A stretch of DNA of 64,000 nucleotides from a bacterium (GTDB lineage: Bacteria; UBA8248), in assembly GCA_965203325.1 (NCBI GenBank), contig OZ241875.1:736001-800000 (forward strand), in the 5' to 3' direction. The notes under the pieces are model-generated. The model was not told the origin of the DNA. It saw nothing but the letters and a program-made list of their open reading frames with translations, and made no database searches. The position numbers and the translations under genes are program-made. This document shows, piece by piece, positions 4,455 through 42,927 of the stretch (position 1 is its first letter; every line of letters starts with the position of its first letter).

Positions 4455-4607
4455 CAACCCCCCCCTACCCCCCCTTGTCAGGGGGGCAAGAAAAAGCAAA
4501 ACCCCCTCAACCCTGCGAAGGCGCATCGCCTTTTTATACCCCCCTGACAAGGGGGGGTAGGGGGGGTTGCCTTTATCCCCTGACAAAGAGGACTTTTCAA
4601 CAACCCC
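4455..4607. repeat. Long palindromic repeat (CCCCCTACCCCCCCTTGTCAGGGGGG arms) plus one MITE-like end
   Basis: ~30-bp inverted arms across 4455-4569; similar reverse-orientation copies at ~7170-7281 and ~22308-22409; ends in CTTTTCAACAACCCC. Confidence 0.85.
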
Positions 4608-4726
4608 TCATCAGGGGCGCTTTCAGCGCTCCCCTGCGGCGGGGGGTTTTTCGTCCGCCTTTTTGCCCTTTCATCCCGGATTCGTTAAGCTGGATGTTCA
4701 CTATCCATCATTGAGGAGAGAATCCG

Positions 4727-6319
4727 ATGGCGCAATTCGACGGAATCGTGATCGGTGCGGGGCATAACGGCCTGGTGTGCGCGGCGTATCTCGCCCGGGC
4801 GGGGCTGAAAGTCGCCGTTCTGGATTGTGAACCCGAAATCGGCGGCGGCTCGAGCACCCAAGAATTCCTGCTGCCCGGCTACCAATCCAACATGCACGCG
4901 AATTTCTTCATCGGTCTGGACGATTTTCCAATCGTCAAGGACCTGGAACTCGACAAACACGGGTTCAAGTGGCTTACGCCCGACGTGCAGCACGCCGCAC
5001 TGTATCGCGACGGCACGGCGGTTCTGCTTCACCGCGACGCTGAGAAAAGCGCGGCGTCCATCTCAAGATTCTCTCAAAAAGACGCGGAATCTTACGTCTA
5101 CCTCCACCGGCGATTCGCCGTGGAACACGCCCCGCTCCTGCGCAGTTTCCTGTTTCACCCACCGCTACCACCGGAGGAAATCGTCTCCCGGATGGACAGC
5201 GATGCGGGACGCGAGATTCTGAGCTTTGCGAAAATGTCGATTTTCGAGGCCATCGAATCGAATTTCGAGCATCCCAAAATGCGGGCCTTGTTCTTCTTGT
5301 TCTCTCACGCCATTACGGTCGAGAACGCGCCGGGCACGGGTATCTTCCTCCCGAGCCTGTTTTCCACCCACACGACGCTCGGCCTCCCGGTGGGGGGCGC
5401 CATCCAACTGCCTCTGGCGCTCGAGCGCATCGTCATCAACAACGGAGGCGTCGTCCTGAGAAACAGCCACGTGCGTGAGGTGATTCGGGAAAACGGTCGC
5501 GCGACGGGCGTGATGCTCGAAGGCGGCGAGAAGATGATGGCGACGCAATTCGTCGCATCGAGCCTCAATGCGCCGGCTTCCATCAAAATGGCGGGAGAGG
5601 ACGCGTTTCCCGATGAGGTCAACGAGAAGGTGCGGAACTGGGACTGGGGTTTCCACTCCCTGAGTACGCTGCATCTCGCACTCGCCGAACCCCCGCGATA
5701 TGCCGCGGAGGATTTCGACCCGGACGTGGGCCAGGCGTACAACATCATCTTCGGCGCCGATTCCGGCGAGGAGATGGCCGAAAACACCGAAGAACGCAGA
5801 AACGGCCTCATCCCGTCGCGCCCGATGGGCAACGGCTCATGCAACAGCCAGCACGACCCCTCCTATGCGCCAGACGACGGCCACGTCGCCTTCTGGTGGC
5901 CCGGCGCGCCCTATGAACTCAAGGACGGCGGCCCCCGGAAGTGGGATGAAGTAAAAGAGGAATACACAGAACGCCTCGTGGACGTGTGGCGGGGCTACGC
6001 TCCGAACCTCACGCCGGACAACGTCCGCGCGGCGAAGCTCTACACCCCGCTCGACGTGGAGCGCGGGAACAAGAACATGATACGCGGCGGCGTGCGCATG
6101 GGGGCGTACATTCCCGAGCAACTGGGGGTCAACAGGCCCCATCCCCTGCTCTCCGGCATGCGGACGCCTCTGGAGGGCTTCTATCTGTGCAGTTCGAGCT
6201 GCCAGGGAGGCGGTCTGAACGGGGCGCCCGGCTATAACGCGGCCGGCGTGATCGCTGAGGATTTGGGCGTCGAGAAATGGTGGGAGCCGCTTCCTGCGCC
6301 CGCGGCGCCCGCCGGCTAA
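4727..6319 (+). CDS. Phytoene dehydrogenase-like FAD-dependent oxidoreductase
   Basis: IGAGHNGLVCAAYLARAG dinucleotide-binding motif; C-terminal RTPLEGFYLCSSSCQGGG.NGAPGYNAA. Confidence 0.9.
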   Translation: MAQFDGIVIGAGHNGLVCAAYLARAGLKVAVLDCEPEIGGGSSTQEFLLPGYQSNMHANFFIGLDDFPIVKDLELDKHGFKWLTPDVQHAALYRDGTAVLLHRDAEKSAASISRFSQKDAESYVYLHRRFAVEHAPLLRSFLFHPPLPPEEIVSRMDSDAGREILSFAKMSIFEAIESNFEHPKMRALFFLFSHAITVENAPGTGIFLPSLFSTHTTLGLPVGGAIQLPLALERIVINNGGVVLRNSHVREVIRENGRATGVMLEGGEKMMATQFVASSLNAPASIKMAGEDAFPDEVNEKVRNWDWGFHSLSTLHLALAEPPRYAAEDFDPDVGQAYNIIFGADSGEEMAENTEERRNGLIPSRPMGNGSCNSQHDPSYAPDDGHVAFWWPGAPYELKDGGPRKWDEVKEEYTERLVDVWRGYAPNLTPDNVRAAKLYTPLDVERGNKNMIRGGVRMGAYIPEQLGVNRPHPLLSGMRTPLEGFYLCSSSCQGGGLNGAPGYNAAGVIAEDLGVEKWWEPLPAPAAPAG

Positions 6320-8650: not shown

Positions 8651-11224
8651 TCACATCAAACTCAACGGGTCTACGTCCACCGCCAGACGAACGGAGGAAA
8701 AAGCCGCTTCTCCGTCAAATTCCGCCCTCAGCGAATTGACCGCCTCGCCCAGGCGCTTCGCCCCTCTGGCCTTCAGGATCATGTGATACCGCCATACGCC
8801 GCGAATCCTCACGAATGGCGCCGGCGCGGGACCCAAGTATTCGACCCCTCCAGGATCGGCGGCGCGCCCGGCGGCGGCAGCGCCATGCCTACGCAAGTAT
8901 GACGCCATCCATTCACCGGCTTTCGCGGCGAGGTGCTTGTTCTTGGACTCGAAACGCAGCCTGGCCAGACGTCGATAGGGCGGGTAACCCAACTGCTCCC
9001 GCGCCAGAGCTTCTCTCTTATAGAAACCGGCGTAATCATGCGTCCGCGCGCACTCAACGGCGAAATGATCCGGCCTGAACGTCTGGATGATGACTTCGCC
9101 GGGCAAATCGGCGCGGCCCGCCCTGCCCGCCACCTGGGTTAATAGCTGAAAAGTGCGTTCGCTCGCCCTGAAATCCGGCAGATGAAGCCCGACATCGGCC
9201 ACCACGACGCCCACGAGCGTCAGATTCGGGAAATCATGGCCTTTCGCCACCATTTGCGTCCCGATGAGGATGTCGATTTCCCCGCTTCGCATGGCGCCGA
9301 ATATGCTCTCGTATGCGCCTGCCCGGCGGGCCGTGTCGCGATCCAGACGCTGGACGCGCGCCTCCGGGAAGCGCGCTTTCACGGCCTGCTCGACGCGCTC
9401 GGTTCCAACGCCGAAGTAACCCACCTGATCACTGCGGCAGGAGGTGCACCTGCTGGGCGGATGCGCGCTGTAATCGCACCAGTGGCACTGCACCCTGCCC
9501 CCGCCTTCACGGTGAAACGTCAGCGGGATGGAGCAGTGAGGACACTCGAGTGCCTCCCCGCAATCGCGGCACAGGATCACCGAAGAGAACCCGCGGCGGT
9601 TCAGGAACAACAGCGTCTGCTCGCCTCGCTCCAGACGCTCGCCGATGGCGGTAGCCAATTCGCGCGTGAGAAGCTCGGGCGTCCTGGGGTCGGAGCCGGC
9701 CTCTTTTCTCAAATCCACCAGGCGCACCTGAGGCAACGTCCCCCCCGTGGGCCGATGCGACAGCGAGCGCAGACGGTAGCGGCCGCTTCTGGCGCTCGTA
9801 TAGCTTTCAATCGACGGCGTCGCCGAACCCAGCACGACGGGAACCCCCAGATTCCTGGCGCGCACGATGCCCGTATCCCGCGCGTTGTAGCGAGGGGATT
9901 CCTCCTGCTTGTAGGAGCCGTCGTGCTCCTCATCCACCGCGATCATCCCGAGTTTCGGAACCGGGGCGAAGACGGCGGACCTCGTGCCCACGACGATGGG
10001 CGCATCCCCGTTCTTGATGCGCCGCCATTCCGACAGGCGCTTTTTCTCCGAATAGGCGCTGTGCAGACAGGCCACCAAACCGTCAAAACGCTCCTGAAAG
10101 CGCCCCAGGAGTTGGGGAGTCAGGCCGATTTCCGGCACCAGAATCAACGCGCCCAATCCGTTTGCGAGGGCTTCTTGCGCAAGCCGGATGTAGACTTCCG
10201 TCTTCCCGCTTCCGGTGACGCCGTGTAGAAGCGTGACCGAAAAATTCTTTTTCTCGATATCCTCCTTCACCAGTTCGAACGATTCTTTCTGCTCATCGGT
10301 AAGGCCCATAGCGGGTGCATCGGCCCTTGGACTCGGCTCGCTCGCATCCTCCGCATCGGGGAGGAGGTCTTCCTCGACTTCGACCCACCCCTTTCTCTCC
10401 AGCGCCGCGCAAGCGGCGCGCGCGCCCTTCGAGAGGATTTCCAGTTCCCCCAGCCGCACCCGTCCATTTTCCGCTTCATTCAAAAGACGCAGGACTTCCG
10501 CCTGCCGCTTCGCGCGTTTTGCCAGAGACTCCAGCTCACTTTCGAGGGGCATCTTGAGAAGGCGCGCGTACTTTGCCATTTTAGGCGAAGAGCCGCCTAC
10601 GGAATCGACGATTTTCTCCACGAAGCCCGCATTGAGAAGACGCATGAGTTCCGGGCGCGTCCCGCGCCCGAACGAGGCCGCAAGAGAACCGATGGTTCTC
10701 GGGCCCTTGCGGAGCGCCACCAGTATGCGCGCCTTGTGACTCCGCTCACCCTCTGAGGGTTTGAGGCCGGGCAAACCAAGGCCGCCTTCTTCGAATGCCG
10801 CCTCCACCCGCCCTGTCTCACTCAGGCGGTAACGCTCTACAGTTTTCTTCTCCCTGTGGGACGGCAACGCGAATTTGAGCGCCTCCCCCCAACCGCAGCA
10901 ATAGTACTCCGCCACCCATCTGGTGAGTTCCAGAAGCTCCGGCGTGAGCAACGGCTCATCGTCAAGAATCTCCAGAACGGACTTTATGGACCCGGGCTCG
11001 AATCCGGGGGGCGGGCTTTCGCCCGGCGGCTGAACGACGTATCCCGTCACCTTCCGCCTGCCCAGCGGCACCAGCACGCGCAGTCCGGGCGTCAATTTCT
11101 CCGCGAACTCATGACCCGCCCGGTAGGTGAGCGGTCCGATCTGGGGGACGCTGAGCGCAACTTCGACATACCGGCTTCCCGGTTCATGCGCTCGCGCGGC
11201 CTCTTTTTTGATGGTGTATTTCAC
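8651..11224 (-). CDS. priA: Primosomal protein N' (replication restart helicase)
   Basis: GVTGSGKTEVY, DEEHD, LNRRG, four CxxC, GTQMVAKGHDFP, QVAGRAGR, VDVDP end. Confidence 0.98.
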   Translation of the reverse strand: MKYTIKKEAARAHEPGSRYVEVALSVPQIGPLTYRAGHEFAEKLTPGLRVLVPLGRRKVTGYVVQPPGESPPPGFEPGSIKSVLEILDDEPLLTPELLELTRWVAEYYCCGWGEALKFALPSHREKKTVERYRLSETGRVEAAFEEGGLGLPGLKPSEGERSHKARILVALRKGPRTIGSLAASFGRGTRPELMRLLNAGFVEKIVDSVGGSSPKMAKYARLLKMPLESELESLAKRAKRQAEVLRLLNEAENGRVRLGELEILSKGARAACAALERKGWVEVEEDLLPDAEDASEPSPRADAPAMGLTDEQKESFELVKEDIEKKNFSVTLLHGVTGSGKTEVYIRLAQEALANGLGALILVPEIGLTPQLLGRFQERFDGLVACLHSAYSEKKRLSEWRRIKNGDAPIVVGTRSAVFAPVPKLGMIAVDEEHDGSYKQEESPRYNARDTGIVRARNLGVPVVLGSATPSIESYTSARSGRYRLRSLSHRPTGGTLPQVRLVDLRKEAGSDPRTPELLTRELATAIGERLERGEQTLLFLNRRGFSSVILCRDCGEALECPHCSIPLTFHREGGGRVQCHWCDYSAHPPSRCTSCRSDQVGYFGVGTERVEQAVKARFPEARVQRLDRDTARRAGAYESIFGAMRSGEIDILIGTQMVAKGHDFPNLTLVGVVVADVGLHLPDFRASERTFQLLTQVAGRAGRADLPGEVIIQTFRPDHFAVECARTHDYAGFYKREALAREQLGYPPYRRLARLRFESKNKHLAAKAGEWMASYLRRHGAAAAGRAADPGGVEYLGPAPAPFVRIRGVWRYHMILKARGAKRLGEAVNSLRAEFDGEAAFSSVRLAVDVDPLSLM

Positions 11225-34798: not shown

Positions 34799-35725
34799 TT
34801 GGACGACAACCATCATAAAATCCTGTTGACCGGCGCGACCGGATACATCGGGGGCCGGTTACGCCGCCGGCTCGAAGCCGAATCGCACGAGCTTCGGTGC
34901 CTCGCGCGCCGCCCCGAAGTCCTCGAACCACATGTCGCGCCGAGGACCGAGGTGGTGCGCGGCGACCTCTTAAAGCCCGCAACGCTCCCCGCGGCCATGC
35001 GCGGTATATCCACCGCCTACTACCTGGTTCATTCGATGGCGTCCGGCGGAGACTTCATCCGAGAAGACCGCGAGGCCGCCAAGGGGTTCGCATACGCGGC
35101 CCGGGCCGCAGGGGTTGAGCGCATCGTCTATCTGGGCGGGCTCGGAAACGAGGATGCGTTGTCCGACCACCTTGCGAGCAGGCAGGAAGTGGGCCGGATT
35201 CTCCGCGAATCCGGCGTGCAGACGATTGAACTGAGGGCCTCGATCATCATCGGCTCCGGAAGTCTCTCGTTCGAGATGATCCGGGCGCTGGTGGAGAGGC
35301 TGCCCGTCATGGTGACGCCTCGCTGGGTTCGCACGCTTGCCCAGCCGATCGCCGTCGAAGACGTCATCGATTACCTTGTCGCCGCTCTCGACGCTCCTCC
35401 GGGGCGAAGCCTCATCCTGGAAATCGGGGGTGCCGACCGCGCCTCCTACGGGGACATCATGGCGGAATACGCCCGCCAGCGGGGGCTGCATAGGCTGATG
35501 ATCGCCGTTCCGGTGCTCACCCCCCGTCTGTCGAGCCTGTGGCTCGCGCTGGTTACTCCCTTATACGCCCGGATCGGGCGCAAACTCGTCGAAAGCCTCC
35601 GCAACGAGACGACCGTGAGCGATACGACGGCTTTCGAGATGTTCGGCATCCGCCCGCGCGGTCTGACCGAAGCGATCCGGCGAGCGCTGGCCGCCGAAGA
35701 ACACGAGTTTGCGGAAAGGCGCTGA
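34799..35725 (+). CDS. NAD(P)-binding atypical SDR (YbjT-like), possibly C-terminally truncated
   Basis: TGATGYIG, AYYLVHSM, HLASRQEVG, RASIIIGSGS, QPIAVEDV; TTG start. Confidence 0.88.
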   Translation: MDDNHHKILLTGATGYIGGRLRRRLEAESHELRCLARRPEVLEPHVAPRTEVVRGDLLKPATLPAAMRGISTAYYLVHSMASGGDFIREDREAAKGFAYAARAAGVERIVYLGGLGNEDALSDHLASRQEVGRILRESGVQTIELRASIIIGSGSLSFEMIRALVERLPVMVTPRWVRTLAQPIAVEDVIDYLVAALDAPPGRSLILEIGGADRASYGDIMAEYARQRGLHRLMIAVPVLTPRLSSLWLALVTPLYARIGRKLVESLRNETTVSDTTAFEMFGIRPRGLTEAIRRALAAEEHEFAERR

Positions 35726-35831: not shown

Positions 35832-35906
35832 TCCGGCGTAGCTCAACGGCAGAGCAATCGGCTGTTAACCGATGGGTTGTAGGTTCGAATCCTACCGCCG
35901 GAGCCA
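35832..35906 (+). tRNA. tRNA-Asn(GTT)
   Basis: TCCGGCG/CGCCGGA acceptor stem, ATCGG-CTGTTAA-CCGAT anticodon arm, GGTTCGAATCC, CCA. Confidence 0.97.
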
Positions 35907-35930
35907 GGATTTTCAGAGATCACCTCACCT

Positions 35931-36281
35931 TCAGGCCTCATCCGCCTTCGAGACGAAATCCGAGAGCGCCTCTTTCACGAGGGCGTTCATGCTCCGGCCG
36001 CGCAAGGCCGCCATACGTGCGAGTTTCTCATGCAGTTCCGCCCCCGGACGCACGTTGAAAGACCCGCTGTATGGCTTGTTCGGCTCGATTCCTTCCGCCT
36101 CGCACGTTTCCAGATAATCGTTCACCGAATCCTGAAACGATTTCTTGAGTTCCCTGGCGGTTTCGGCTTCGTATGTAATCAAATCCTGCACGTGGAGCAC
36201 CTTGCCGTGCAAGGTTTCGCTTTCCTCGTCATATTCAATGGATCCCTGATAATTCTTGTACCTCAAAACCGCTCCGATCAT
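35931..36281 (-). CDS. hicB: HicB family antitoxin
   Basis: YKNYQGSIEY, SVNDYLETC, KPYSGSFNVR...LH, SMNALV. Confidence 0.93.
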   Translation of the reverse strand: MIGAVLRYKNYQGSIEYDEESETLHGKVLHVQDLITYEAETARELKKSFQDSVNDYLETCEAEGIEPNKPYSGSFNVRPGAELHEKLARMAALRGRSMNALVKEALSDFVSKADEA

Positions 36282-36344
36282 CTTTGGCCCCTTTCCATCC
36301 TCGTGAGCAAATCTGATTCCCCGCCATTCCCCTTCAGGTGTATT

Positions 36345-36599
36345 TCACAACAAACCACCTTCCTCCAACTTCTTTCTTACCTCGCGTATGACATATGGCT
36401 TCAACTTTCCTTCGGCATGGGGCTGGTGAAGGAAAATCCGGGGAGCCAACGAATGAATGAACCTTCGCCGTGAGCCACCCATTCTTCCTCCCGTTGACTG
36501 CCGATAACCCAATCCCTCCAATAGCTGAACCAATTCGTTCCATGTAAAATTTTTTGGATTCTTCCTGAATTTATCCAGCAGCTTCTCGTGTTTGCTCAT
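36345..36599 (-). CDS. hicA: HicA family toxin
   Basis: FTWNELVQLL, GGSRRRF, LHQPH, LKPYVI; directly upstream of hicB. Confidence 0.9.
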   Translation of the reverse strand: MSKHEKLLDKFRKNPKNFTWNELVQLLEGLGYRQSTGGRMGGSRRRFIHSLAPRIFLHQPHAEGKLKPYVIREVRKKLEEGGLL

Positions 36600-36638
36600 C
36601 GGTCTCTTGTCTAAATATCACTGGCTCAAACCATTATA

Positions 36639-36702
36639 GCAACTGTCAATTAGTTGCATTATATAGGGCAAACCCCCAGAAATGCAACTATTTTTTCGTT
36701 GC
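36639..36702. promoter_or_regulatory. Two palindromic operators upstream of hicAB
   Basis: GCAACT-N7-AGTTGC (36639-36657) and GCAACT-N7-CGTTGC (36684-36702). Confidence 0.7.
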
Positions 36703-36811
36703 AATAAGAAGTCGGGGTATAGATTATGAAATGATCACGGGCATGGGAGGGAAAAGACTTCCCAAGGAGTGGCATTCTTGATGGCAACTGCCCTTACCCG
36801 GCAATACCCCC

Positions 36812-38161
36812 TCAAACGCCGCTCTTCGCTTTTTCGAGGGCCGCGACGTTCATCGGGTGCGCGTTGCGGCGGCGCTTGTCGACGCGGATGCGCAGGCGCG
36901 CGGCCTCGGCGGGACTCAAACCGGCTTCCCGCAGTTCGCTCCGGCTGAACCCCTTGCCGGGCCGCCAGGCTCTGCGCGCATCTCTCACGAGAGGGAGGAG
37001 CCCATTTTCCGGGAAAGGGGGTTCCGAGGCTTCCTCCGGTTCTTCCAACGGCAAGTCGGCAGCCGCGTCGACGGCCTCCGGCTCGCTCTCCCGAGGCGTT
37101 TCCGGCTCGGAAACCGTCGCCTCCGCCACGCTTTCCTGAGAGGTTTCCGGCTCAGGGGCAGCCGCCTCCACGGCGTTTTCAACTACGTCCGTGACGTCCT
37201 CATGTTCCGAAACGACACCAAGCGTAGCGTCCGGCCCATCTTCATGAGGGACTGCAAGATCGGATGCAGTCTCCTCTACGACCTTCTCCTCGACAACCGA
37301 AACGGCTTCGTCCTGCTCTTCATCCGAATCGGCCGCATCCGGCGAATCAGCCGGTTCCGGCACGGCCAGGGCATCGAAATCATCGCCATATCCTTCAAGC
37401 GGCTCAGGCTCGCGAGATGGCACGGCCTCATCCACCGAACCACCCGGGATCGACGCCGCCGGAGGTTCGTCATCCTCCGCCGCGTCGGCATCGTCAATAA
37501 TACGCACCCCGCTATCTTCAGGAATCTCCGCCGCCACGGGCGCATATCCCCCCACGACGCTTTCGGCTGCGTCGGGGGCTTCCTCAAACTCAAGAGCGGC
37601 ATCGCCGATAGCTTCCGACTCGCTTTCTACAAAAACCTCAGGCTCTGAGTCCGGCGGCTCCCCGGCCTTTTCGGAAACGCGCGCGGCGGTCTCCTCATCC
37701 TCCCGAGGCGAATCGGCCGGTTCCGGCACGGCCAGGGCCTCGAAACCATCGCCATATCCTGCAAGCGGCTCGGACCCGCGAGGCATCCCGGCCTCACCCG
37801 GCGGTTCATCCGAGACCGGCGCCGCCAATGATTCCGGGGCGGGGGCATGGCCGCTTTCTGGCGCGTCCACCACGTTCGCCGGTTCCGCGCCTTGCGGTTC
37901 ATCGGAAGCCAGTAACTCCAACTCGAGACCGTATCCGCTTTCTGGCGCGTCCGTTTCGCCCGCCGCATCCGGGTTCGGCGTTTCACCGGAAGCCAACAAC
38001 TCGAAGTGAGAGCCGTAGCCGCTTTGCTCCGCCTCGTTCTCAGAATACGGAACGCCCGGTTCGATGGCCGTGGGAGGCGGCAAATCAAACCCCTCTTCTT
38101 CCGGCTTTGGAGGTGCAGATTCCTTGCGACGCCCGATGCGGCTCAAAAATTTTTTCTTCAT
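36812..38161 (-). CDS. Acidic low-complexity protein with C-terminal ribosomal protein eL13 (L13e)-like domain
   Basis: C-terminus PLVR...RPGKGFSRSELREAGL...ARLRIRVDKRRRNAHPMNVAAL; N-terminal ~385 aa E/P/A/D-rich with repeats. Confidence 0.8.
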   Translation of the reverse strand: MKKKFLSRIGRRKESAPPKPEEEGFDLPPPTAIEPGVPYSENEAEQSGYGSHFELLASGETPNPDAAGETDAPESGYGLELELLASDEPQGAEPANVVDAPESGHAPAPESLAAPVSDEPPGEAGMPRGSEPLAGYGDGFEALAVPEPADSPREDEETAARVSEKAGEPPDSEPEVFVESESEAIGDAALEFEEAPDAAESVVGGYAPVAAEIPEDSGVRIIDDADAAEDDEPPAASIPGGSVDEAVPSREPEPLEGYGDDFDALAVPEPADSPDAADSDEEQDEAVSVVEEKVVEETASDLAVPHEDGPDATLGVVSEHEDVTDVVENAVEAAAPEPETSQESVAEATVSEPETPRESEPEAVDAAADLPLEEPEEASEPPFPENGLLPLVRDARRAWRPGKGFSRSELREAGLSPAEAARLRIRVDKRRRNAHPMNVAALEKAKSGV

Positions 38162-38257
38162 GATGACACCGCCCTCTTTCGGAAAAACTCACGAGTCCAT
38201 AAACTATCGTCGAGTAAATACAGGGGCGGTAAGAGAGGCAAGAAAACTTACGGGTTA

Positions 38258-38287
38258 AGACTAACGATAACAAAGATTTGGTGTCAA
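38258..38287 (-). promoter_or_regulatory. Sigma70-like promoter of the eL13-domain gene
   Basis: Minus strand TTGACA (38287-38282)-18 bp-TAGTCT (38263-38258). Confidence 0.5.
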
Positions 38288-38387
38288 GCCGCGCAAAAAC
38301 GAGCGCGTTGACGGGTATTCTCAATTATCCAAAACACGCGAAACCGGGAAGGCCGAGTGGGTGTCAATCGTTCAAACCGGATACGGG

Positions 38388-38705
38388 TCACCCGTCCTTT
38401 TGATGGATGGTTTGCAAGTCTCGATCGAGATCTTCGAGGTCATATTGGACCGGCGTTTTTCGGCTGCGCGCATAGTCCATCATCTCCCACAGGGAAACTC
38501 CCGCATCGCGCGCCGCCCGCGCAAGAGTGACCTTTCCATCCCCGTAGAGCCGGAAGTAATGCTCCAGCTTCCACTGCCGGACCGCGTTCGACAGCAGCCT
38601 TCGCAGGGTGGTCGAACGGTCGGACTGCTCCACATTCTCGATGAGTTCCAGTTCGCGAACCAGTTCCAGGGGGAGCCTCGCGCCTACCATGCGCTCTTTT
38701 TTCAT
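38388..38705 (-). CDS. UPF0175 family protein (RHH+HTH, antitoxin-like)
   Basis: VGARLP, DRSTTLRRLL, LYGDGKVTLARAARDAGVSLWEM, YDLEDLDRDL. Confidence 0.85.
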   Translation of the reverse strand: MKKERMVGARLPLELVRELELIENVEQSDRSTTLRRLLSNAVRQWKLEHYFRLYGDGKVTLARAARDAGVSLWEMMDYARSRKTPVQYDLEDLDRDLQTIHQKDG

Positions 38706-38741
38706 ACGATGCAATCCACACAATCCAGGGGTTGTGAGTAA

Positions 38742-40376
38742 TTATTCATCCCAACTATCCACTGATGCCTCATGCTTGATCATTTCCATGACATTGATAC
38801 CAGAAGACATGACCTCGAATCCACTAGATGTGCGACCGCTCTCAAAAATCTGCTGCCAGAAGTCATTATTTTGCTTTCCGCCGAACACCGAAGAGGATAG
38901 ATCCTTGTTGACCCACAGTGGGAGGCGCTTCAAAGCATCAACAAAATTCTCGATATTCTCCCAACAAGTATCCGGGATCGTATATTGAAACAATTTACCT
39001 TCGGGTAGCGGCTTACCTGTAGCGATGAAATAATGCTGAATAATCTGGCTCACGTATCTCAACCAATTGTAAACAATCTCTTCTTTGGCCATTCGGAACG
39101 CGCGGAGGTGAGGCTCCGGGATGTCTTCTCCTTTTTGGATATTGTGTTCAATCCGTCGAGTGCCAAGTGAAGGCTCAAATTGTCCGATGAAAATCTTCTC
39201 GGCAATGACATTCATCAATCGGACTATCTGTTCAATTTCGAGATACCGTGGATTCGCCCCTTCTTCGAGCTTGAAATTAAACGGGGTAGTCAACAAATCA
39301 GCATGGATAAAAAACGAGTAGAAGGTTTTTTCGACTGTACTGTAACTCAGAGGCTTTTGGGTGCCCCGACCACCATAGTCAATATAGTCGCGTAGCTTGT
39401 TGTCGGGATGTCGTGTGATGCTGTTTCGAATCCAATCAATGACATACCTCTTCATTTCCCTGCTTTCGCCTTTGAAATGATTGACGAGATCCCTTTCCGT
39501 GAAACTCTCGTAATCTTCGTCTTTCCCACAATCACTTCGATAACGCTTCATTCTATCTTCCAACAGGGAACTACCGAGACTTCTCTGCACCGATTTGTCG
39601 AATGCGACTTGGCGCAGCGTCGTGCCTGCGTGAGTGTTCGCCGTCAGTAAGATATCGGTATCCGGATCGATGAACACTCGAACCGGTAGGCAACGAGTCC
39701 CCAAAAGTATTTGTGCAGCTGCTTTGTGTTGGCCGTCGAATATCTGAACTTTGGTCAGGTTGCCATTAGAAGTATCGAGCCATCCCAATGCGATATGAAG
39801 TTGTGGCATCTGCTTATGGAATTCCTCCACAATCTTCCTGAGATTCGCCCCAATTGGCCGTGGATTTATGTGGTTATCATGATGCAAGTACTCAATGGGG
39901 AGGTTGATGAATGTATAACGAAACCCTGACAGATCATCTTTATAGATCGGAAATGTAAGAATGTCGTTCTGGCCGAGATCAGAGAACGCCGTTTTCAATT
40001 TCTCTTCGTTAACAGTGACCGAAAGTTCATATTTAGCGCCACCATTCTCGCTAAGGACATCACCGAGGTTGGGAGAACGGTCTTCCGATATCGACTCCGA
40101 TATCCTATCAAAGGAAGCGAGGATCCTCGCTACACGAAGGTCACTGGCTTGTTTCGTCCGATTACACGAATCATGGGTGACGGCGAAGTTGCTCGGATCG
40201 TCTTTTCCGCCGACTTTGGTCGGCTCTACATGGTCGATATCAATATGGTTGCCATGGACATCGGGGTCAATCGCCTTCCCACAGATGAAACAATTGTTAT
40301 TTTGTGTTTTCAGAAGACGATTAATGAGTTCCCGGCGTTCCTCAACCGACAGTCTGTTGAGATAAGGTGATGGCAT
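38742..40376 (-). CDS. HNH endonuclease fused to a ParB/DndB-like (DGQHK) domain
   Basis: CFIC...IDIDHVEP...GGKDDPSNFAVTHDSCNRTK; INPR; IFDGQHKAAA; lower GC than flanks. Confidence 0.85.
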   Translation of the reverse strand: MPSPYLNRLSVEERRELINRLLKTQNNNCFICGKAIDPDVHGNHIDIDHVEPTKVGGKDDPSNFAVTHDSCNRTKQASDLRVARILASFDRISESISEDRSPNLGDVLSENGGAKYELSVTVNEEKLKTAFSDLGQNDILTFPIYKDDLSGFRYTFINLPIEYLHHDNHINPRPIGANLRKIVEEFHKQMPQLHIALGWLDTSNGNLTKVQIFDGQHKAAAQILLGTRCLPVRVFIDPDTDILLTANTHAGTTLRQVAFDKSVQRSLGSSLLEDRMKRYRSDCGKDEDYESFTERDLVNHFKGESREMKRYVIDWIRNSITRHPDNKLRDYIDYGGRGTQKPLSYSTVEKTFYSFFIHADLLTTPFNFKLEEGANPRYLEIEQIVRLMNVIAEKIFIGQFEPSLGTRRIEHNIQKGEDIPEPHLRAFRMAKEEIVYNWLRYVSQIIQHYFIATGKPLPEGKLFQYTIPDTCWENIENFVDALKRLPLWVNKDLSSSVFGGKQNNDFWQQIFESGRTSSGFEVMSSGINVMEMIKHEASVDSWDE

Positions 40377-40454
40377 CGCAGTCCTCCATTAGACCTCGTG
40401 CGAGTGGAACATAATTACGGACCGCAGAAGCTACCTGTCAAGCCCTACAATCCG

Positions 40455-41237
40455 TCAGCCAATGAACTCGGCCTCACCACTTACATCACCCGCCAGTTCC
40501 TCGGCGGTCCGGATGATGAGTTCGATGTCCGCATCCCGCGAGAGCCGGTGGCCGCCGTCCTTGACGAGCATGAGTCTCACGTCATCGCTTTTGAGGACCT
40601 CGGTCAGTTTCAAGGAAACCTCCCAGGAAATCGTTTCATCGAGCATCCCGTGTATAAGGCGAACCGGGCAGTTCAAATCGATCTCACCCCGCAGGAGCAG
40701 GTGCTTATCCCCCTCATCGAGGAGCTTTTTGGTGAAGGGATACGGCTCCCCCCAGATGTTGGGCGCGTGCATGACGTATCCCCGCTCGTCGAGTTCACGC
40801 TCCATCTCTTCGGTGAGCCTGTGCTTCTTGAAGCCATCCGTAAAATCAGGTCCCGACGCCACGCCCACCAGCCCTTTCACGCGTTCGGGCCGGGCCAGGG
40901 CGGTGAGCAGCATCATCCACGCGCCCATGCTGGAACCCACGAGCACTTGGGGTCCCCGGGCGACCTCGTCCAGGATCGCCAGCGCGTCCTCCGCCCACTC
41001 GCCGATGGTTCCCTCCTCGAATTTTCCCGAGGATTCCCCGTGTCCGCCGTAGTCGAAGCGAACGTAGGCGCGCCCCACCTTCCGGCAATGGGCTTCGAGC
41101 GCGCTCGCCTTCGTCCCGCTCATGTCCGAGCGGAAACCGCCCAGGAACATCAGGCCGGGCGATTCGCCCTCCAGACGGAACCAGGCGAGCGAATTCCCGT
41201 TTTCTCTGTGAAGAAAACTCGATCCGGAGTCGGACAT
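40455..41237 (-). CDS. Alpha/beta hydrolase (ABHD10-like)
   Basis: GGFRSDMSGTKA, FDYGGHG, GSSMG, HGMLD, GGHRLS. Confidence 0.93.
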   Translation of the reverse strand: MSDSGSSFLHRENGNSLAWFRLEGESPGLMFLGGFRSDMSGTKASALEAHCRKVGRAYVRFDYGGHGESSGKFEEGTIGEWAEDALAILDEVARGPQVLVGSSMGAWMMLLTALARPERVKGLVGVASGPDFTDGFKKHRLTEEMERELDERGYVMHAPNIWGEPYPFTKKLLDEGDKHLLLRGEIDLNCPVRLIHGMLDETISWEVSLKLTEVLKSDDVRLMLVKDGGHRLSRDADIELIIRTAEELAGDVSGEAEFIG

Positions 41238-41244
41238 TTTCGTT

Positions 41245-41778
41245 TCAGGATGAATTTTTCAGATGGTCGAGCAGCCGGGCGGGGACGCTCCGGATTGCGG
41301 CCTCCGCCGCCTCGTCTATGCAATGCCCATCCTCGTCGAAGACCTTGTGGACGCTTCCGATGGAAGCCTGACCGGGCAGAACCTCTCCGCCGATGTGGGT
41401 GAGAATATGCCTCAGGTGCGCGAGGGCGTTGTCCGCGCTCGGCCCCATCGCCACGCCCAGGATGGCGATGGTCTTGCCCTCGAACGTGGAGGGATAGCCC
41501 AGGTTGTCGATCGCCAGCTTGAGCGTGCTGCTGATGCTGCCGTGATACTCGGGCGTCGCGATGAGGATTCCCGCCGCCCCCGTCACGAGACTTTGCAGCA
41601 TATCGGGGTCTTTCGACTCGCTCGGCTCACCGGGCAGGGGCAGGTCCAGTTCACCCAGATGGATGCGCTTGATCTCGAAATCGCCCTTCCCCAACTCATC
41701 GAGCGCGAGGGCGAGGGCTTTATCGGTATTGTTCTGGGGCCTGCGGCTGCCGCCGAAGACAAGGATGTAGGGAGTCAT
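41245..41778 (-). CDS. NADPH-dependent FMN reductase
   Basis: GSRR, ATPEYHGSISSTLKLAID. Confidence 0.92.
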   Translation of the reverse strand: MTPYILVFGGSRRPQNNTDKALALALDELGKGDFEIKRIHLGELDLPLPGEPSESKDPDMLQSLVTGAAGILIATPEYHGSISSTLKLAIDNLGYPSTFEGKTIAILGVAMGPSADNALAHLRHILTHIGGEVLPGQASIGSVHKVFDEDGHCIDEAAEAAIRSVPARLLDHLKNSS

Positions 41779-41793
41779 TTCCAGTTTTTTCGA

Positions 41794-42927
41794 TTATGCG
41801 GCGACGCCGGCCGGCTCGGGCAGTACGATGGGTTCGGTATCCTTGAGAAGCGGCAGGACCTCCCTGCCGAATATTTCCGCCTCTTCCCTGTGGGGCCATC
41901 CGTTCATGATGAAATGCCGCACGCCCGCTTCGTAATACTCGCGAATCACGCCTGCGACCATATCCGGCGTCCCGACGAACATCGTCCCCGCACCGCCGCG
42001 CACCCTGTTCACGCCCATCCAGATCGTATCGGTGATCCAGAGGCTGTCGCGCGAGCCCATCTCGTTGATGCGCATCTGTCCGGTGGATTCGGTGACGTTC
42101 TTCATGTCGCTCCACGTTCCCGTGTTCGAGATGTCGCTCCCCTCGATGAGCGCCTCGGCGGCGCGCACCGCCTCTTTCCTCGTCTCGCGCACGCAGACCA
42201 AATGGCGGATGCCGTAGCTGAGCGGCCGTTCGCGCTCATACGCCTGGGACTCGCGCCTGCCCTCCTCGATGTCCTTGCCGACGACTTCTGGTTCGGCGGC
42301 GTACATCATGTGCACGTCGCCGTGTTCCCACGCCACGCGCTTGCCGGGGTCTGAGCTACCCGCCAGGAAAATCGGGGGATTGGGCTTCGTCACCCGCTCG
42401 GGGAATATCCCTGCGTTTTCGATCTCGAAGAATTTTCCCTTGTAGTCGAGCGGCCCCTCCGCGTTCCAGAGCTTGCGCACCACGTCCAGGAACTCGCCCG
42501 TGCGCGCGTAGCGATCGTCATGCGGCATGAAATCTCCGTATCTTTTCTGATCCACGGGCGTGCTGCCCGTCACCACGTTAAGCGTGCAGCGCCCGCCGGT
42601 GAGGTAATCGAGGCTGTTCGCCTGCTGCGCCGCGTAGACCGGGCCGGTGATTCCGGGCCGGAAAGCCACCAGGAACTTGATCTTCTTCGTCCGGCTCGAA
42701 ATCGCGCCCGCCGTCGTCCAGGCGTCGATGCAGTGCGTGCCGCACGGCACGAGGATGTTGGCGAAGCCCGCCTCCTCGGCCGACGTCGTGACTTCCGCGA
42801 GATAATCCAGAGTGGCGGGCCGATCGGGCGTCTTCTGGTTCACCTGCGACCCGTCCCCCGCCCTGTGGGAGCAGAGCGCCCAGATGTATTCGGTGGACAT
42901 CTTTCGTCTCCTCGGCGCCTCACTCAC
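41794..42927 (-). CDS. LLM-class flavin-dependent monooxygenase (SsuD-like)
   Basis: AEEAGFANILVP, FLVAFRPG, LNVVTG, HDDRYARTGEF, AGSS, VGTP. Confidence 0.92.
   Translation of the reverse strand: MSEAPRRRKMSTEYIWALCSHRAGDGSQVNQKTPDRPATLDYLAEVTTSAEEAGFANILVPCGTHCIDAWTTAGAISSRTKKIKFLVAFRPGITGPVYAAQQANSLDYLTGGRCTLNVVTGSTPVDQKRYGDFMPHDDRYARTGEFLDVVRKLWNAEGPLDYKGKFFEIENAGIFPERVTKPNPPIFLAGSSDPGKRVAWEHGDVHMMYAAEPEVVGKDIEEGRRESQAYERERPLSYGIRHLVCVRETRKEAVRAAEALIEGSDISNTGTWSDMKNVTESTGQMRINEMGSRDSLWITDTIWMGVNRVRGGAGTMFVGTPDMVAGVIREYYEAGVRHFIMNGWPHREEAEIFGREVLPLLKDTEPIVLPEPAGVAA

Follow-up and report, generated by a model that had tools for sequence, protein, structure and literature searches.

This study focused on a gene at positions 36,812 to 38,161, on the minus strand, of a 64,000-nucleotide (nt) stretch of DNA, here called the window, which corresponds to positions 736,001 to 800,000 of contig OZ241875.1 (assembly GCA_965203325.1) of a bacterium in the GTDB lineage UBA8248. 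The gene specifies a protein of 449 amino acids (aa), which begins with a basic motif, continues with an acidic region of about 360 aa and ends in a domain of about 60 aa. An initial annotation, prepared from the sequence by itself, had read the last ~62 aa as eL13-like, and this stands as quoted: judged by profile matches, signature residues and predicted fold, the domain is a true homologue of the core of eL13 (L13e), which is regarded as a marker of archaeal and eukaryotic ribosomes (PMC3353972, PMC9932298). The eL13 core fold is present in bacteria in two non-ribosomal architectures, the acidic protein described here and the large helicase-partner proteins introduced below, and a literature search found no description of bacterial L13e or eL13-like proteins in either of them. 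The features of the gene, in window coordinates, are as follows (pI, isoelectric point; pLDDT, predicted local distance difference test).

36812..38161, minus strand: whole coding sequence, acidic protein with C-terminal eL13-fold domain; 449 aa plus stop, from the open reading frame list and its translation
36815..37003, minus strand: C-terminal eL13-fold domain, aa 387–449; pI 11.9, net charge +10
37007..38086, minus strand: polyacidic region, predicted to be disordered, aa 26–385; from composition and model pLDDT
38087..38161, minus strand: basic N-terminal motif, aa 1–25, MKKKFLSRIGRRK...; pI 10.2
37994..38017, minus strand: tail motif Y-G-x-[DEHG]-[LMF]-[ED]-x-[LIV], copy 1, aa 49–56; regular-expression scan
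37910..37933, minus strand: tail motif copy 2, aa 77–84; same scan; L83 invariant in alignment A1
37733..37756, minus strand: tail motif copy 3, aa 136–143; Y136 invariant and G137 nearly invariant in A1
37367..37390, minus strand: tail motif copy 4, aa 258–265; 366 nt from copy 3, within direct repeat D1
37341..37460, no strand assigned: direct repeat D1, copy a; 120 nt, 366 nt from copy b
37707..37826, no strand assigned: direct repeat D1, copy b; 82% identity to copy a in a repeat search
38162..38400, minus strand: conserved upstream intergenic region, probable promoter and 5' leader; blastn against related loci

A C-terminal domain of the eL13 superfamily

The Pfam profile PF01294 (Ribosomal_L13e) matches the whole protein at residues 397–435 with 34.1 bits (E 3.2e-8; gathering cut-off 24.9) and the C-terminal 70 aa alone with 38.4 bits, so that the profile check suggested in the initial annotation came out over threshold; the match spans profile positions 60–98 of 180 only. 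The NCBIfam model for archaeal L13e, NF008914, scored 51.6 bits with the whole protein and 56.3 bits with the 70-aa piece, aligning residues 395–444 with model positions 24–73 of 83, but 51.6 bits is below its equivalog cut-off of 96, and the protein failed this test for eL13 proper. A phmmer search of PDB sequences returned eL13 chains, the best being 9e6q_AH (E 9.2e-8). IcmE/DotG was also in that list and was rejected, as it is a repeat protein with no stretch that passes alone and a low-complexity cross-match to '..AGFS..EL..'.

Conservation and predicted structure agree with the profile matches. In alignment A2, which joins the C-terminal 70 aa to 59 relatives (locus-derived domains and short full-length proteins), six residues are invariant across the 60 sequences (G25, S27, E30, G35, D49 and R52) and another six are conserved in at least 90% of them (R21, G23, F26, A41, R51 and N59). 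An AlphaFold2 model of the domain made from A2 has a pLDDT of 84.1, with a beta-hairpin at 12–22 and helices at 28–34, 38–43 and 57–68. The comparison with eL13 through AlphaFold and Foldseek, also proposed at the outset, gave ribosome entries as the best 50 Foldseek matches in the PDB (chain L-type; E 1.4e-4 to 1.4e-3; query template-modelling score, TM, 0.59–0.75), and every one that could be matched to the phmmer PDB list was eL13. Among 48,161 representative chains compared using VIA-align, 13 had Z scores of at least 2, and eight of these were eL13 (Z 7.1–9.4; root-mean-square deviation, rmsd, 1.7–2.5 Å): the best match, 9e6q_AH of Pyrobaculum calidifontis (Z 9.4, rmsd 1.7 Å over 64 residues, 41% identity), and seven eukaryotic chains with Z of 7.1–8.9. 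The other five were unrelated, with Z of 2.1–2.4. The model superposes on residues 1–71 of 9e6q_AH, which is the entire globular core of that chain.

The domain therefore belongs to the eL13 superfamily, and the protein itself is not eL13 proper, given its score on the equivalog model, a match that is well short of full length, and a setting away from core genes. The domain is preceded in the 449-aa protein by 385 unrelated residues, and the C-terminal portion (aa 386–449) is strongly basic, with a pI of 11.9 and a net charge of +10.

A genus-restricted family, its variable tail and its island slot

The genome is a single contig of 4,392,711 bases and has one copy of the domain over the Pfam cut-off. 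When 41 genomes were scanned (this one and its relatives), 18 scored over that cut-off, all within the genus of the window: the genome itself and 17 of the 22 other species of the genus, compared with none of the 18 genomes outside it. A scan of 51 genomes across the phylum gave the same 17 of 22 within the genus and none of 28 across 14 other Nitrospinota genera, where absence from an incomplete genome is no proof of absence. A word-indexed protein search defined the family as 97 proteins of 249–541 aa whose last 70 residues are 71–100% identical to the query. Four of these (P0016, P0017, P0050 and P0064), all from metagenome-assembled genomes (MAGs), three from Nitrospinae/Nitrospinota and one from a Rhodospirillaceae MAG, have been named 'ribosomal protein L13e' by NCBI and share 74–84% identity in the C-terminal 70 aa. 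The label is misleading, since it names the whole protein after a domain making up about 14% of it, and nothing found here backs a ribosomal role. The 22 related genome loci that were available for comparison are labelled Nitrospinota, Nitrospinaceae or just 'bacterium', and in 16 of them the gene is syntenic, as found by tblastn of the window open reading frames.

The domain is under purifying selection: across 78 pairs drawn from 13 orthologues, the ratio of non-synonymous to synonymous substitution rates (dN/dS) for the C-terminal 62 codons has a median of 0.22 and a maximum of 0.52, and the reading frame is open in all 13. Some genomes of the genus carry two or three copies. One of them (G010) has three, at C1:1944403-1944516, 1852703-1852816 and 2098642-2098752, and two of these, located in short frames (115 and 149 aa), could be either truncated or stand-alone versions. 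Short stand-alone forms are otherwise limited to four proteins of 58–110 aa, all near the family and probably fragments. Searches for mobile carriers were negative; no match to the domain came up by tblastn in 50,697 phage and 72,556 plasmid records, and a pattern scan of IMG/VR, derived from an alignment of 30 family members (A1), gave 74 matches, none of which encodes a relative.

Among sequencing runs, five DNA runs contain at least half of the sampled words, and for a sixth, X6, the share is 0.50. The matching runs are X1 and X2 (study P1, which may be the source), X3 (P2), X4 and X5 (P3), and X6 (P4). Studies P3 and P4 are labelled sponge metagenome, and since near-identical DNA is found in their runs, the symbiont setting that had been raised in the initial annotation is plausible. 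Contigs from runs X3, X4 and X6 cover the gene, mostly at 95–99% likeness. A chimeric contig, named at the outset as something that would refute the observation, is rejected as unlikely in view of the single 4.39 Mb contig, the synteny in relatives and the coverage by contigs of other runs.

The tail (residues 26–385) is rich in E (19%), A (16%), P (13%) and D (9%) and has a net charge of -95. In a full-length AlphaFold2 model based on 30 family members, secondary structure is absent from all residues before 390, and the mean pLDDT of 10-residue blocks is 36–56 up to residue 380, 62 for residues 381–390 and 85–93 for residues 391–449, in keeping with the long, acidic and probably disordered sequence first described. 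Third-position guanine plus cytosine (GC3) is 0.64 in the tail as against 0.825 in the domain. The N-terminal motif, [KR][KRNE][KNS][FLI][LF][SNR]R[IM], is kept in 83 of the 97 family members. The features conserved in A1 are this motif (…KKNFLSRIARRK…EIPPP…), with R8, R11 and K13 nearly invariant and P28 and P30 invariant, a variable number of tail motifs, and the C-terminal domain. The tail motif, Y-G-x-D/E-L/F-E-x-L, occurs in all 97 proteins, once in 26, twice in 43, three times in 17 and four times in 11. In the window protein, copies 3 and 4 are included in direct repeat D1, and one X4 contig jumps from 37380 to 37747, leaving out exactly 366 nt (122 codons, in frame); other contigs of runs X3 and X4 'go back' by 366 nt within the acidic tail. 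Since the skip equals the spacing of D1, the number of repeat units varies in frame in nature. A search of the ESM Atlas with residues 1–385 gave no usable match, and structure prediction for a complex of the tail motif with the C-terminal domain returned a score of 0.00 and a mark of 0.32. There is no hydrophobic N-terminal segment (12-residue hydropathy peaks at 0.14 within the first 50 aa and at 1.28 across the whole protein), and from its sequence the protein is cytoplasmic-looking.

The gene lies outside any ribosomal protein operon, as had been stated, among the following neighbours, several of which vary between related genomes.

35832..35906, plus strand: tRNA-Asn (gtt), one border of the slot, also in G001, G006 and G019; ARAGORN and Rfam
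35931..36281, minus strand: HicB, inside the slot; Pfam HicB 70.1 bits, GC3 0.69
36345..36599, minus strand: HicA, forming a toxin-antitoxin pair with HicB; Pfam HicA_toxin 37.5 bits, GC3 0.54
38388..38723, minus strand: UPF0175 small protein directly upstream of the gene; Pfam UPF0175 38.7 bits
38742..40376, minus strand: 544-aa HNH-domain gene, in the slot of this genome only; Pfam HNH 28.8 bits, GC 0.46, GC3 0.51
40455..41237, minus strand: alpha/beta hydrolase, the other border of the slot, also in G001, G006 and G019; Pfam Abhydrolase_1

The genes bordering the interval are widely kept: those for the alpha/beta hydrolase, an FMN reductase and a luciferase-like protein (40455–42927) occur in 16 of the 22 Nitrospinota loci, and an NAD-binding epimerase-like gene (34799–35725) adjoining the tRNA-Asn in 12. 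Inside the interval, HicB is found in 12 of the 22, UPF0175 in 10 and the HNH gene in none. The interval was compared in sister species without the family (genomes G001, G006 and G019; loci L043, from G006, L044 and L045). In G019 it is empty and about 190 bp long; in G001 it holds HicB and about 2 kb; in G006 it holds a 660-aa partner protein whose gene overlaps that of a 1425-aa helicase; and in the window (35906–40455) it holds the acidic gene and the toxin-antitoxin genes. Because its content differs between these species, the interval can be described as a variable island slot. The GC3 of the domain (0.825) is similar to that of core neighbours (0.77–0.86), compared with 0.51–0.54 for the HNH and HicA genes. 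The HNH protein has an N-terminal HNH domain with weak PADLOC matches to PtuB (E 1.2e-5) and about 460 aa without a family match; with a GC content of 0.46 in a genome of 0.61, and with no counterpart in the 22 related loci, its gene looks like a recent insertion in the tRNA-Asn slot.

Five other loci of the family are situated elsewhere (L022, L032, L033, L035 and L036), with uninformative neighbours: transposases, permeases of the ABC-3 and xanthine/uracil types and proteins that lack a Pfam match, none of them ribosomal or translational. The second-copy locus L022 lies between genes for DDE_3 and IS110-type transposases (4598–5284 and 9564–10697), a hint that extra copies move with insertion sequences.

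The initial annotation had also credited the gene with its own sigma70-like promoter. This was not borne out by a sigma-70 consensus scan of 36550–38450, which found no promoter-like site; two TTGACA hexamers can be seen by eye upstream, with no acceptable -10 at 16–18 nt. An Rfam search of the whole window found two tRNAs only and no family in the upstream region. By blastn, the 239 nt upstream of the gene are 72–98% identical in 13 of the 22 related loci, and this conservation makes a regulatory region of its own plausible.

Relatives among helicase partner proteins

Relatives of the domain were sought by phmmer with the 70-aa piece against 1.84 billion cluster representatives, giving 290 matches at E ≤ 1e-3, of which 18 were at E ≤ 1e-10, and they are described here from the best 150 of the 290. 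The Nitrospinota family takes the first 16 places. It is followed by long proteins that carry the domain at their extreme C-terminus, headed by P0108 (689 aa, 59% identity, E 8e-12) and followed by P0110, P0112, P0115 and P0116, and only from E 6.8e-8 do short proteins appear (55–160 aa, domain near the N-terminus). All 51 short proteins that were scanned match the archaeal L13e model, with 48–121 bits, two of them over its cut-off. Five short archaeal-type L13e proteins of 129–165 aa (P0125, P0141, P0175, P0195 and P0231) have a C-terminal extension that matches helix-hairpin-helix (HhH) regions of the topoisomerase I, RadA and DNA polymerase IV models, and would represent an L13e–HhH fusion.

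Most of these long proteins are related to helicase partners. Alignments of more than 200 residues connect 55 of the 61 long proteins to large proteins at loci L037–L040, which come from MAGs labelled Thermodesulfobacteriota, Gammaproteobacteria, Rhodothermales and Ca. Multivoraceae. At these four loci and in G006, the stop of the partner gene overlaps, or is within a few bases of, the start of a gene for a helicase of 1191–1425 aa; the five pairs (L037:3361-10360, L038:3829-10356, L039:3457-10363, L040:3865-10393 and, from G006, L043:4959-11202) represent five phyla. The L037 helicase, the only one scanned, combines an MZB domain with DEAD and Helicase_C, and its PADLOC match is DruE1 (E 6.5e-160). 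The same PADLOC collection (2023 models, DruH included) gave no family at E ≤ 0.01 for the window protein or for two large partners. Partner proteins are 580–1170 aa long; a basic N-terminus leads into an extended low-complexity region, after which come a core of about 480 aa, an Ig-like segment and, at the C-terminus, the eL13 fold. One of them has a PHROG match to 'virion structural protein' at residues 781–860. A family of helicase partners ending in eL13 was not found in the passages searched of the Druantia and YprA preprints, in which 'L13' is absent and, where it was searched, 'ribosomal' likewise.

A quick IQ-TREE phylogeny was built from 150 domain rows and 66 columns, in which 19 of the 101 unique family domains were sampled. 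Rows with incomplete domain coverage were dropped (P0172, P0210, P0111, P0202, P0113, P0119 and P0232); P0172 and P0210 were pentapeptide-like, low-complexity cross-matches to '..AGFS..EL..'. In the maximum-likelihood tree the family forms one clade (Shimodaira–Hasegawa-like approximate likelihood ratio, SH-aLRT, 100) within clades of long proteins (support 89 and 98). A tryptophan three residues before GKGFS is found in all 101 family domains, 41 of 61 long proteins, all four locus partners and six of 61 short proteins. Together, the phmmer ranking, the tree and the shared Trp indicate that the family domain is closest to the helicase-partner type.

These results also bear on the origin of the gene, which the initial annotation had presented as horizontal acquisition. 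Direct capture from archaea or eukaryotes is not favoured, because the best relatives outside the family are bacterial, the tree and the distribution of the Trp agree with this ranking, the gene is syntenic across the genus, and its GC3 is like that of core neighbours.

The window protein is nevertheless not a member of the helicase-partner family, as it has neither the core nor the helicase. A 930-aa partner used as a query matches the window's genome only through residues 864–926, its terminal domain, with no trace of the ~480-aa core. No DEAD/Helicase_C/MZB helicase adjoins the gene, the sole MZB match in the genome is about 237 kb off, and the G006 helicase as a query finds no match in it. 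Among 23 genomes of the genus, the partner core is present in G006 and G008 only, and the helicase in the same two, with a weak partial match (35% identity, 442-aa frame) in G009, which carries the family. In G008, the core (815-aa frame) and helicase lie at another chromosomal place (C10:440981-447467); as there is no Pfam L13e match in G008, the C-terminal module of its partner may be divergent or of another kind.

Interpretation and comparison with known systems

The explanation we favour, with confidence and doubt about evenly balanced, is that the protein is a nucleic-acid binder that does not serve the ribosome, carries an acidic tail and has evolutionary ties to the helicase partners. 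It would be a lineage-specific accessory protein of one Nitrospinota genus found in sponge metagenomes, with a domain representing a bacterial branch of the eL13 superfamily that otherwise forms the C-terminus of large partners of DruE-like helicases. The conserved Arg/Lys/Gly signature of the domain may allow it to bind nucleic acid, either single-stranded DNA or structured RNA, and the polyanionic tail could gate this binding as an in-cis mimic of nucleic acid or recruit partners through its repeated motifs. Tail length would change by in-frame recombination between repeats. The role is likely to be an island-borne function in conflict or regulation, away from the ribosome. For the partners, passages of a study of DruH, the Escherichia coli partner of DruE, report that it binds single-stranded DNA (10.64898/2026.05.12.722862), which makes a nucleic-acid role for their terminal module plausible, by analogy only, as the partners described here are not detectably DruH.

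Several points weigh against this explanation. The 449-aa protein has no match in PADLOC or PHROGs, and no RNA run matches the stretch. The phylogeny that had been called for places the family within the long-protein clades, as described above, but the alignment is short (66 columns), and an approximately unbiased (AU) test leaves standing a tree in which all the long proteins form a clade excluding the family (p-AU 0.495, lnL difference 0.72), so that nesting, as opposed to a sister position, is not secure. A profile of the family N-terminus scored at most 0.4 bits against 43 partner N-termini, compared with 5.3 bits for the best of 2150 shuffles, and a shared N-terminus with the helicase partners thus finds no support. 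No family carrier has the partner core, and none has the helicase besides the weak match in G009, so that the protein has to function independently of both. With the tRNA as reference, this gene and that of the G006 partner run on opposite strands; simple descent in place is therefore not established, and descent from a partner gene is offered here as a hypothesis. It is the neighbourhood alone that suggests a role in defence or conflict, and, as binding to rRNA is the one activity known for the eL13 core, a ribosomal function would fit equally well.

That function, which the initial annotation had suggested alongside an RNA chaperone and a host-directed mimic, is the first alternative: a ribosome-associated factor whose domain docks on the 50S subunit at the site equivalent to that of archaeal eL13, with the polyacidic tail hanging from the ribosome. 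We consider this unlikely, while taking it seriously. No partner other than rRNA is known for this fold, the structural matches all come from eL13 in ribosomes, the model covers the full globular core of the archaeal chain (residues 1–71), and the signature residues are retained under purifying selection. The 56.3 bits of the 70-aa piece fall inside the 48–121 bits of the 51 short archaeal-type proteins, and eL13 is described as an rRNA-binding ribosomal protein that enters pre-ribosomes early (PMC9932298). Set against these points are the variable slot, which is empty in a sister species, and the failure to find the family in five of the 22 species of the genus, unlike a core ribosomal protein. 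Neighbours related to ribosomes or translation are missing both here and at the paralogous loci, the nearest relatives are partners of DNA helicases, and the match to the eL13 model is confined to positions 60–98 of 180.

A broader form of the docking idea, to which we attach a lower probability again, is that the eL13 fold is a device for docking on ribosomes or rRNA that bacteria have co-opted twice, once for an infection cue in helicase systems and once for a tail-bearing 50S factor. If true, the large partners would link a Druantia-like helicase system with ribosomes or structured RNA, which would serve as the cue of infection, and the acidic protein of these sponge symbionts would be a bacterial ribosome-associated factor of a new type.

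It could also be speculated that the protein is a host-directed mimic of eL13 with short linear motifs, delivered to sponge cells and acting there on ribosome biogenesis or trafficking, which we regard as improbable. Near-identical DNA in sponge-metagenome runs of two studies (P3 and P4), restriction of the family to one genus, short motifs repeated in a disordered tail, which typify mimicry, and fold matches to eukaryotic eL13 (Z 7.1–8.9) are all compatible with this idea. Yet neither a hydrophobic N-terminal segment (hydropathy maximum 0.14 in the first 50 aa) nor any other secretion signal was seen, the closest matches are archaeal in structure and bacterial in sequence, which sets the domain nearer to long bacterial proteins and archaeal-type L13e than to the eukaryotic protein, the same domain works within bacteria in helicase operons of four other phyla, and no tool matched the tail motifs to a known eukaryotic motif. 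Least probable of all, and very much so, is a functionless, decaying remnant of a defence partner gene, left after the core and the helicase were lost: the slot common with the G006 partner-helicase pair, the highly variable, repeat-rich tail and the lack of the helicase in any carrier besides the weak partial match in G009 would suit it, but the frame is open in 13 of 13 orthologues with a domain dN/dS of 0.22, the N-terminal motif is in 83 and the tail motif in all of the 97 proteins, the observed length variant is in frame, some genomes have two or three copies, and the upstream region is conserved.

The significance of these findings is threefold. The acidic family is conserved and genus-restricted in a sponge-associated lineage of nitrite oxidisers, with a repeat number that varies in natural populations, and is a candidate lineage-specific adaptation, whether to phage conflict, in ribosome biology or in host interaction. 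The link to partners of DruE-like helicases, for its part, offers a way to test what is bound by the partner proteins of such defence modules, which are so far unexplored. Lastly, the public annotation of family members as 'ribosomal protein L13e' is misleading.

In comparison with eL13/L13e itself (e.g., 9e6q_AH), the domain shares the signature R-x-G-x-G-F-S..E-L..A-G.....A...I.V-D-x-R-R......N and the same predicted fold, a beta-hairpin followed by three helices. It differs in being limited to the core and in lying at the C-terminal end of an acidic protein of 449 aa, whereas in eL13 proper the domain is in the N-terminal part of a small basic protein; in that it is bacterial, island-borne and outside a ribosomal protein cluster; and in the Trp before the signature, rare in short L13e-type proteins (6 of 61).

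The partners of DruE-like helicases form, with their helicases, two-gene modules like those of Druantia type III. The window protein resembles these partners in its C-terminal eL13-fold domain, which has the same Trp-containing signature and 51–59% identity, in its layout of a basic N-terminus followed by a long low-complexity region, and in that the G006 pair fills the same slot between tRNA-Asn and hydrolase. It is unlike them in having neither the ~480-aa core nor the Ig-like segment, no DruE-like helicase adjacent or elsewhere in the genome, a gene on the other strand, and an N-terminus without sequence similarity to theirs.

A more distant parallel is provided by HMGB1, bacterial single-stranded DNA-binding protein (SSB) and phage T7 gp2.5, in which a basic nucleic-acid-binding domain is combined with an acidic, disordered tail that competes in cis. 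The window protein likewise joins a small basic domain (+10) to a polyanionic tail (-95), but there is no homology, its tail is far longer and carries repeated motifs, and binding of the tail in cis is hypothetical here.

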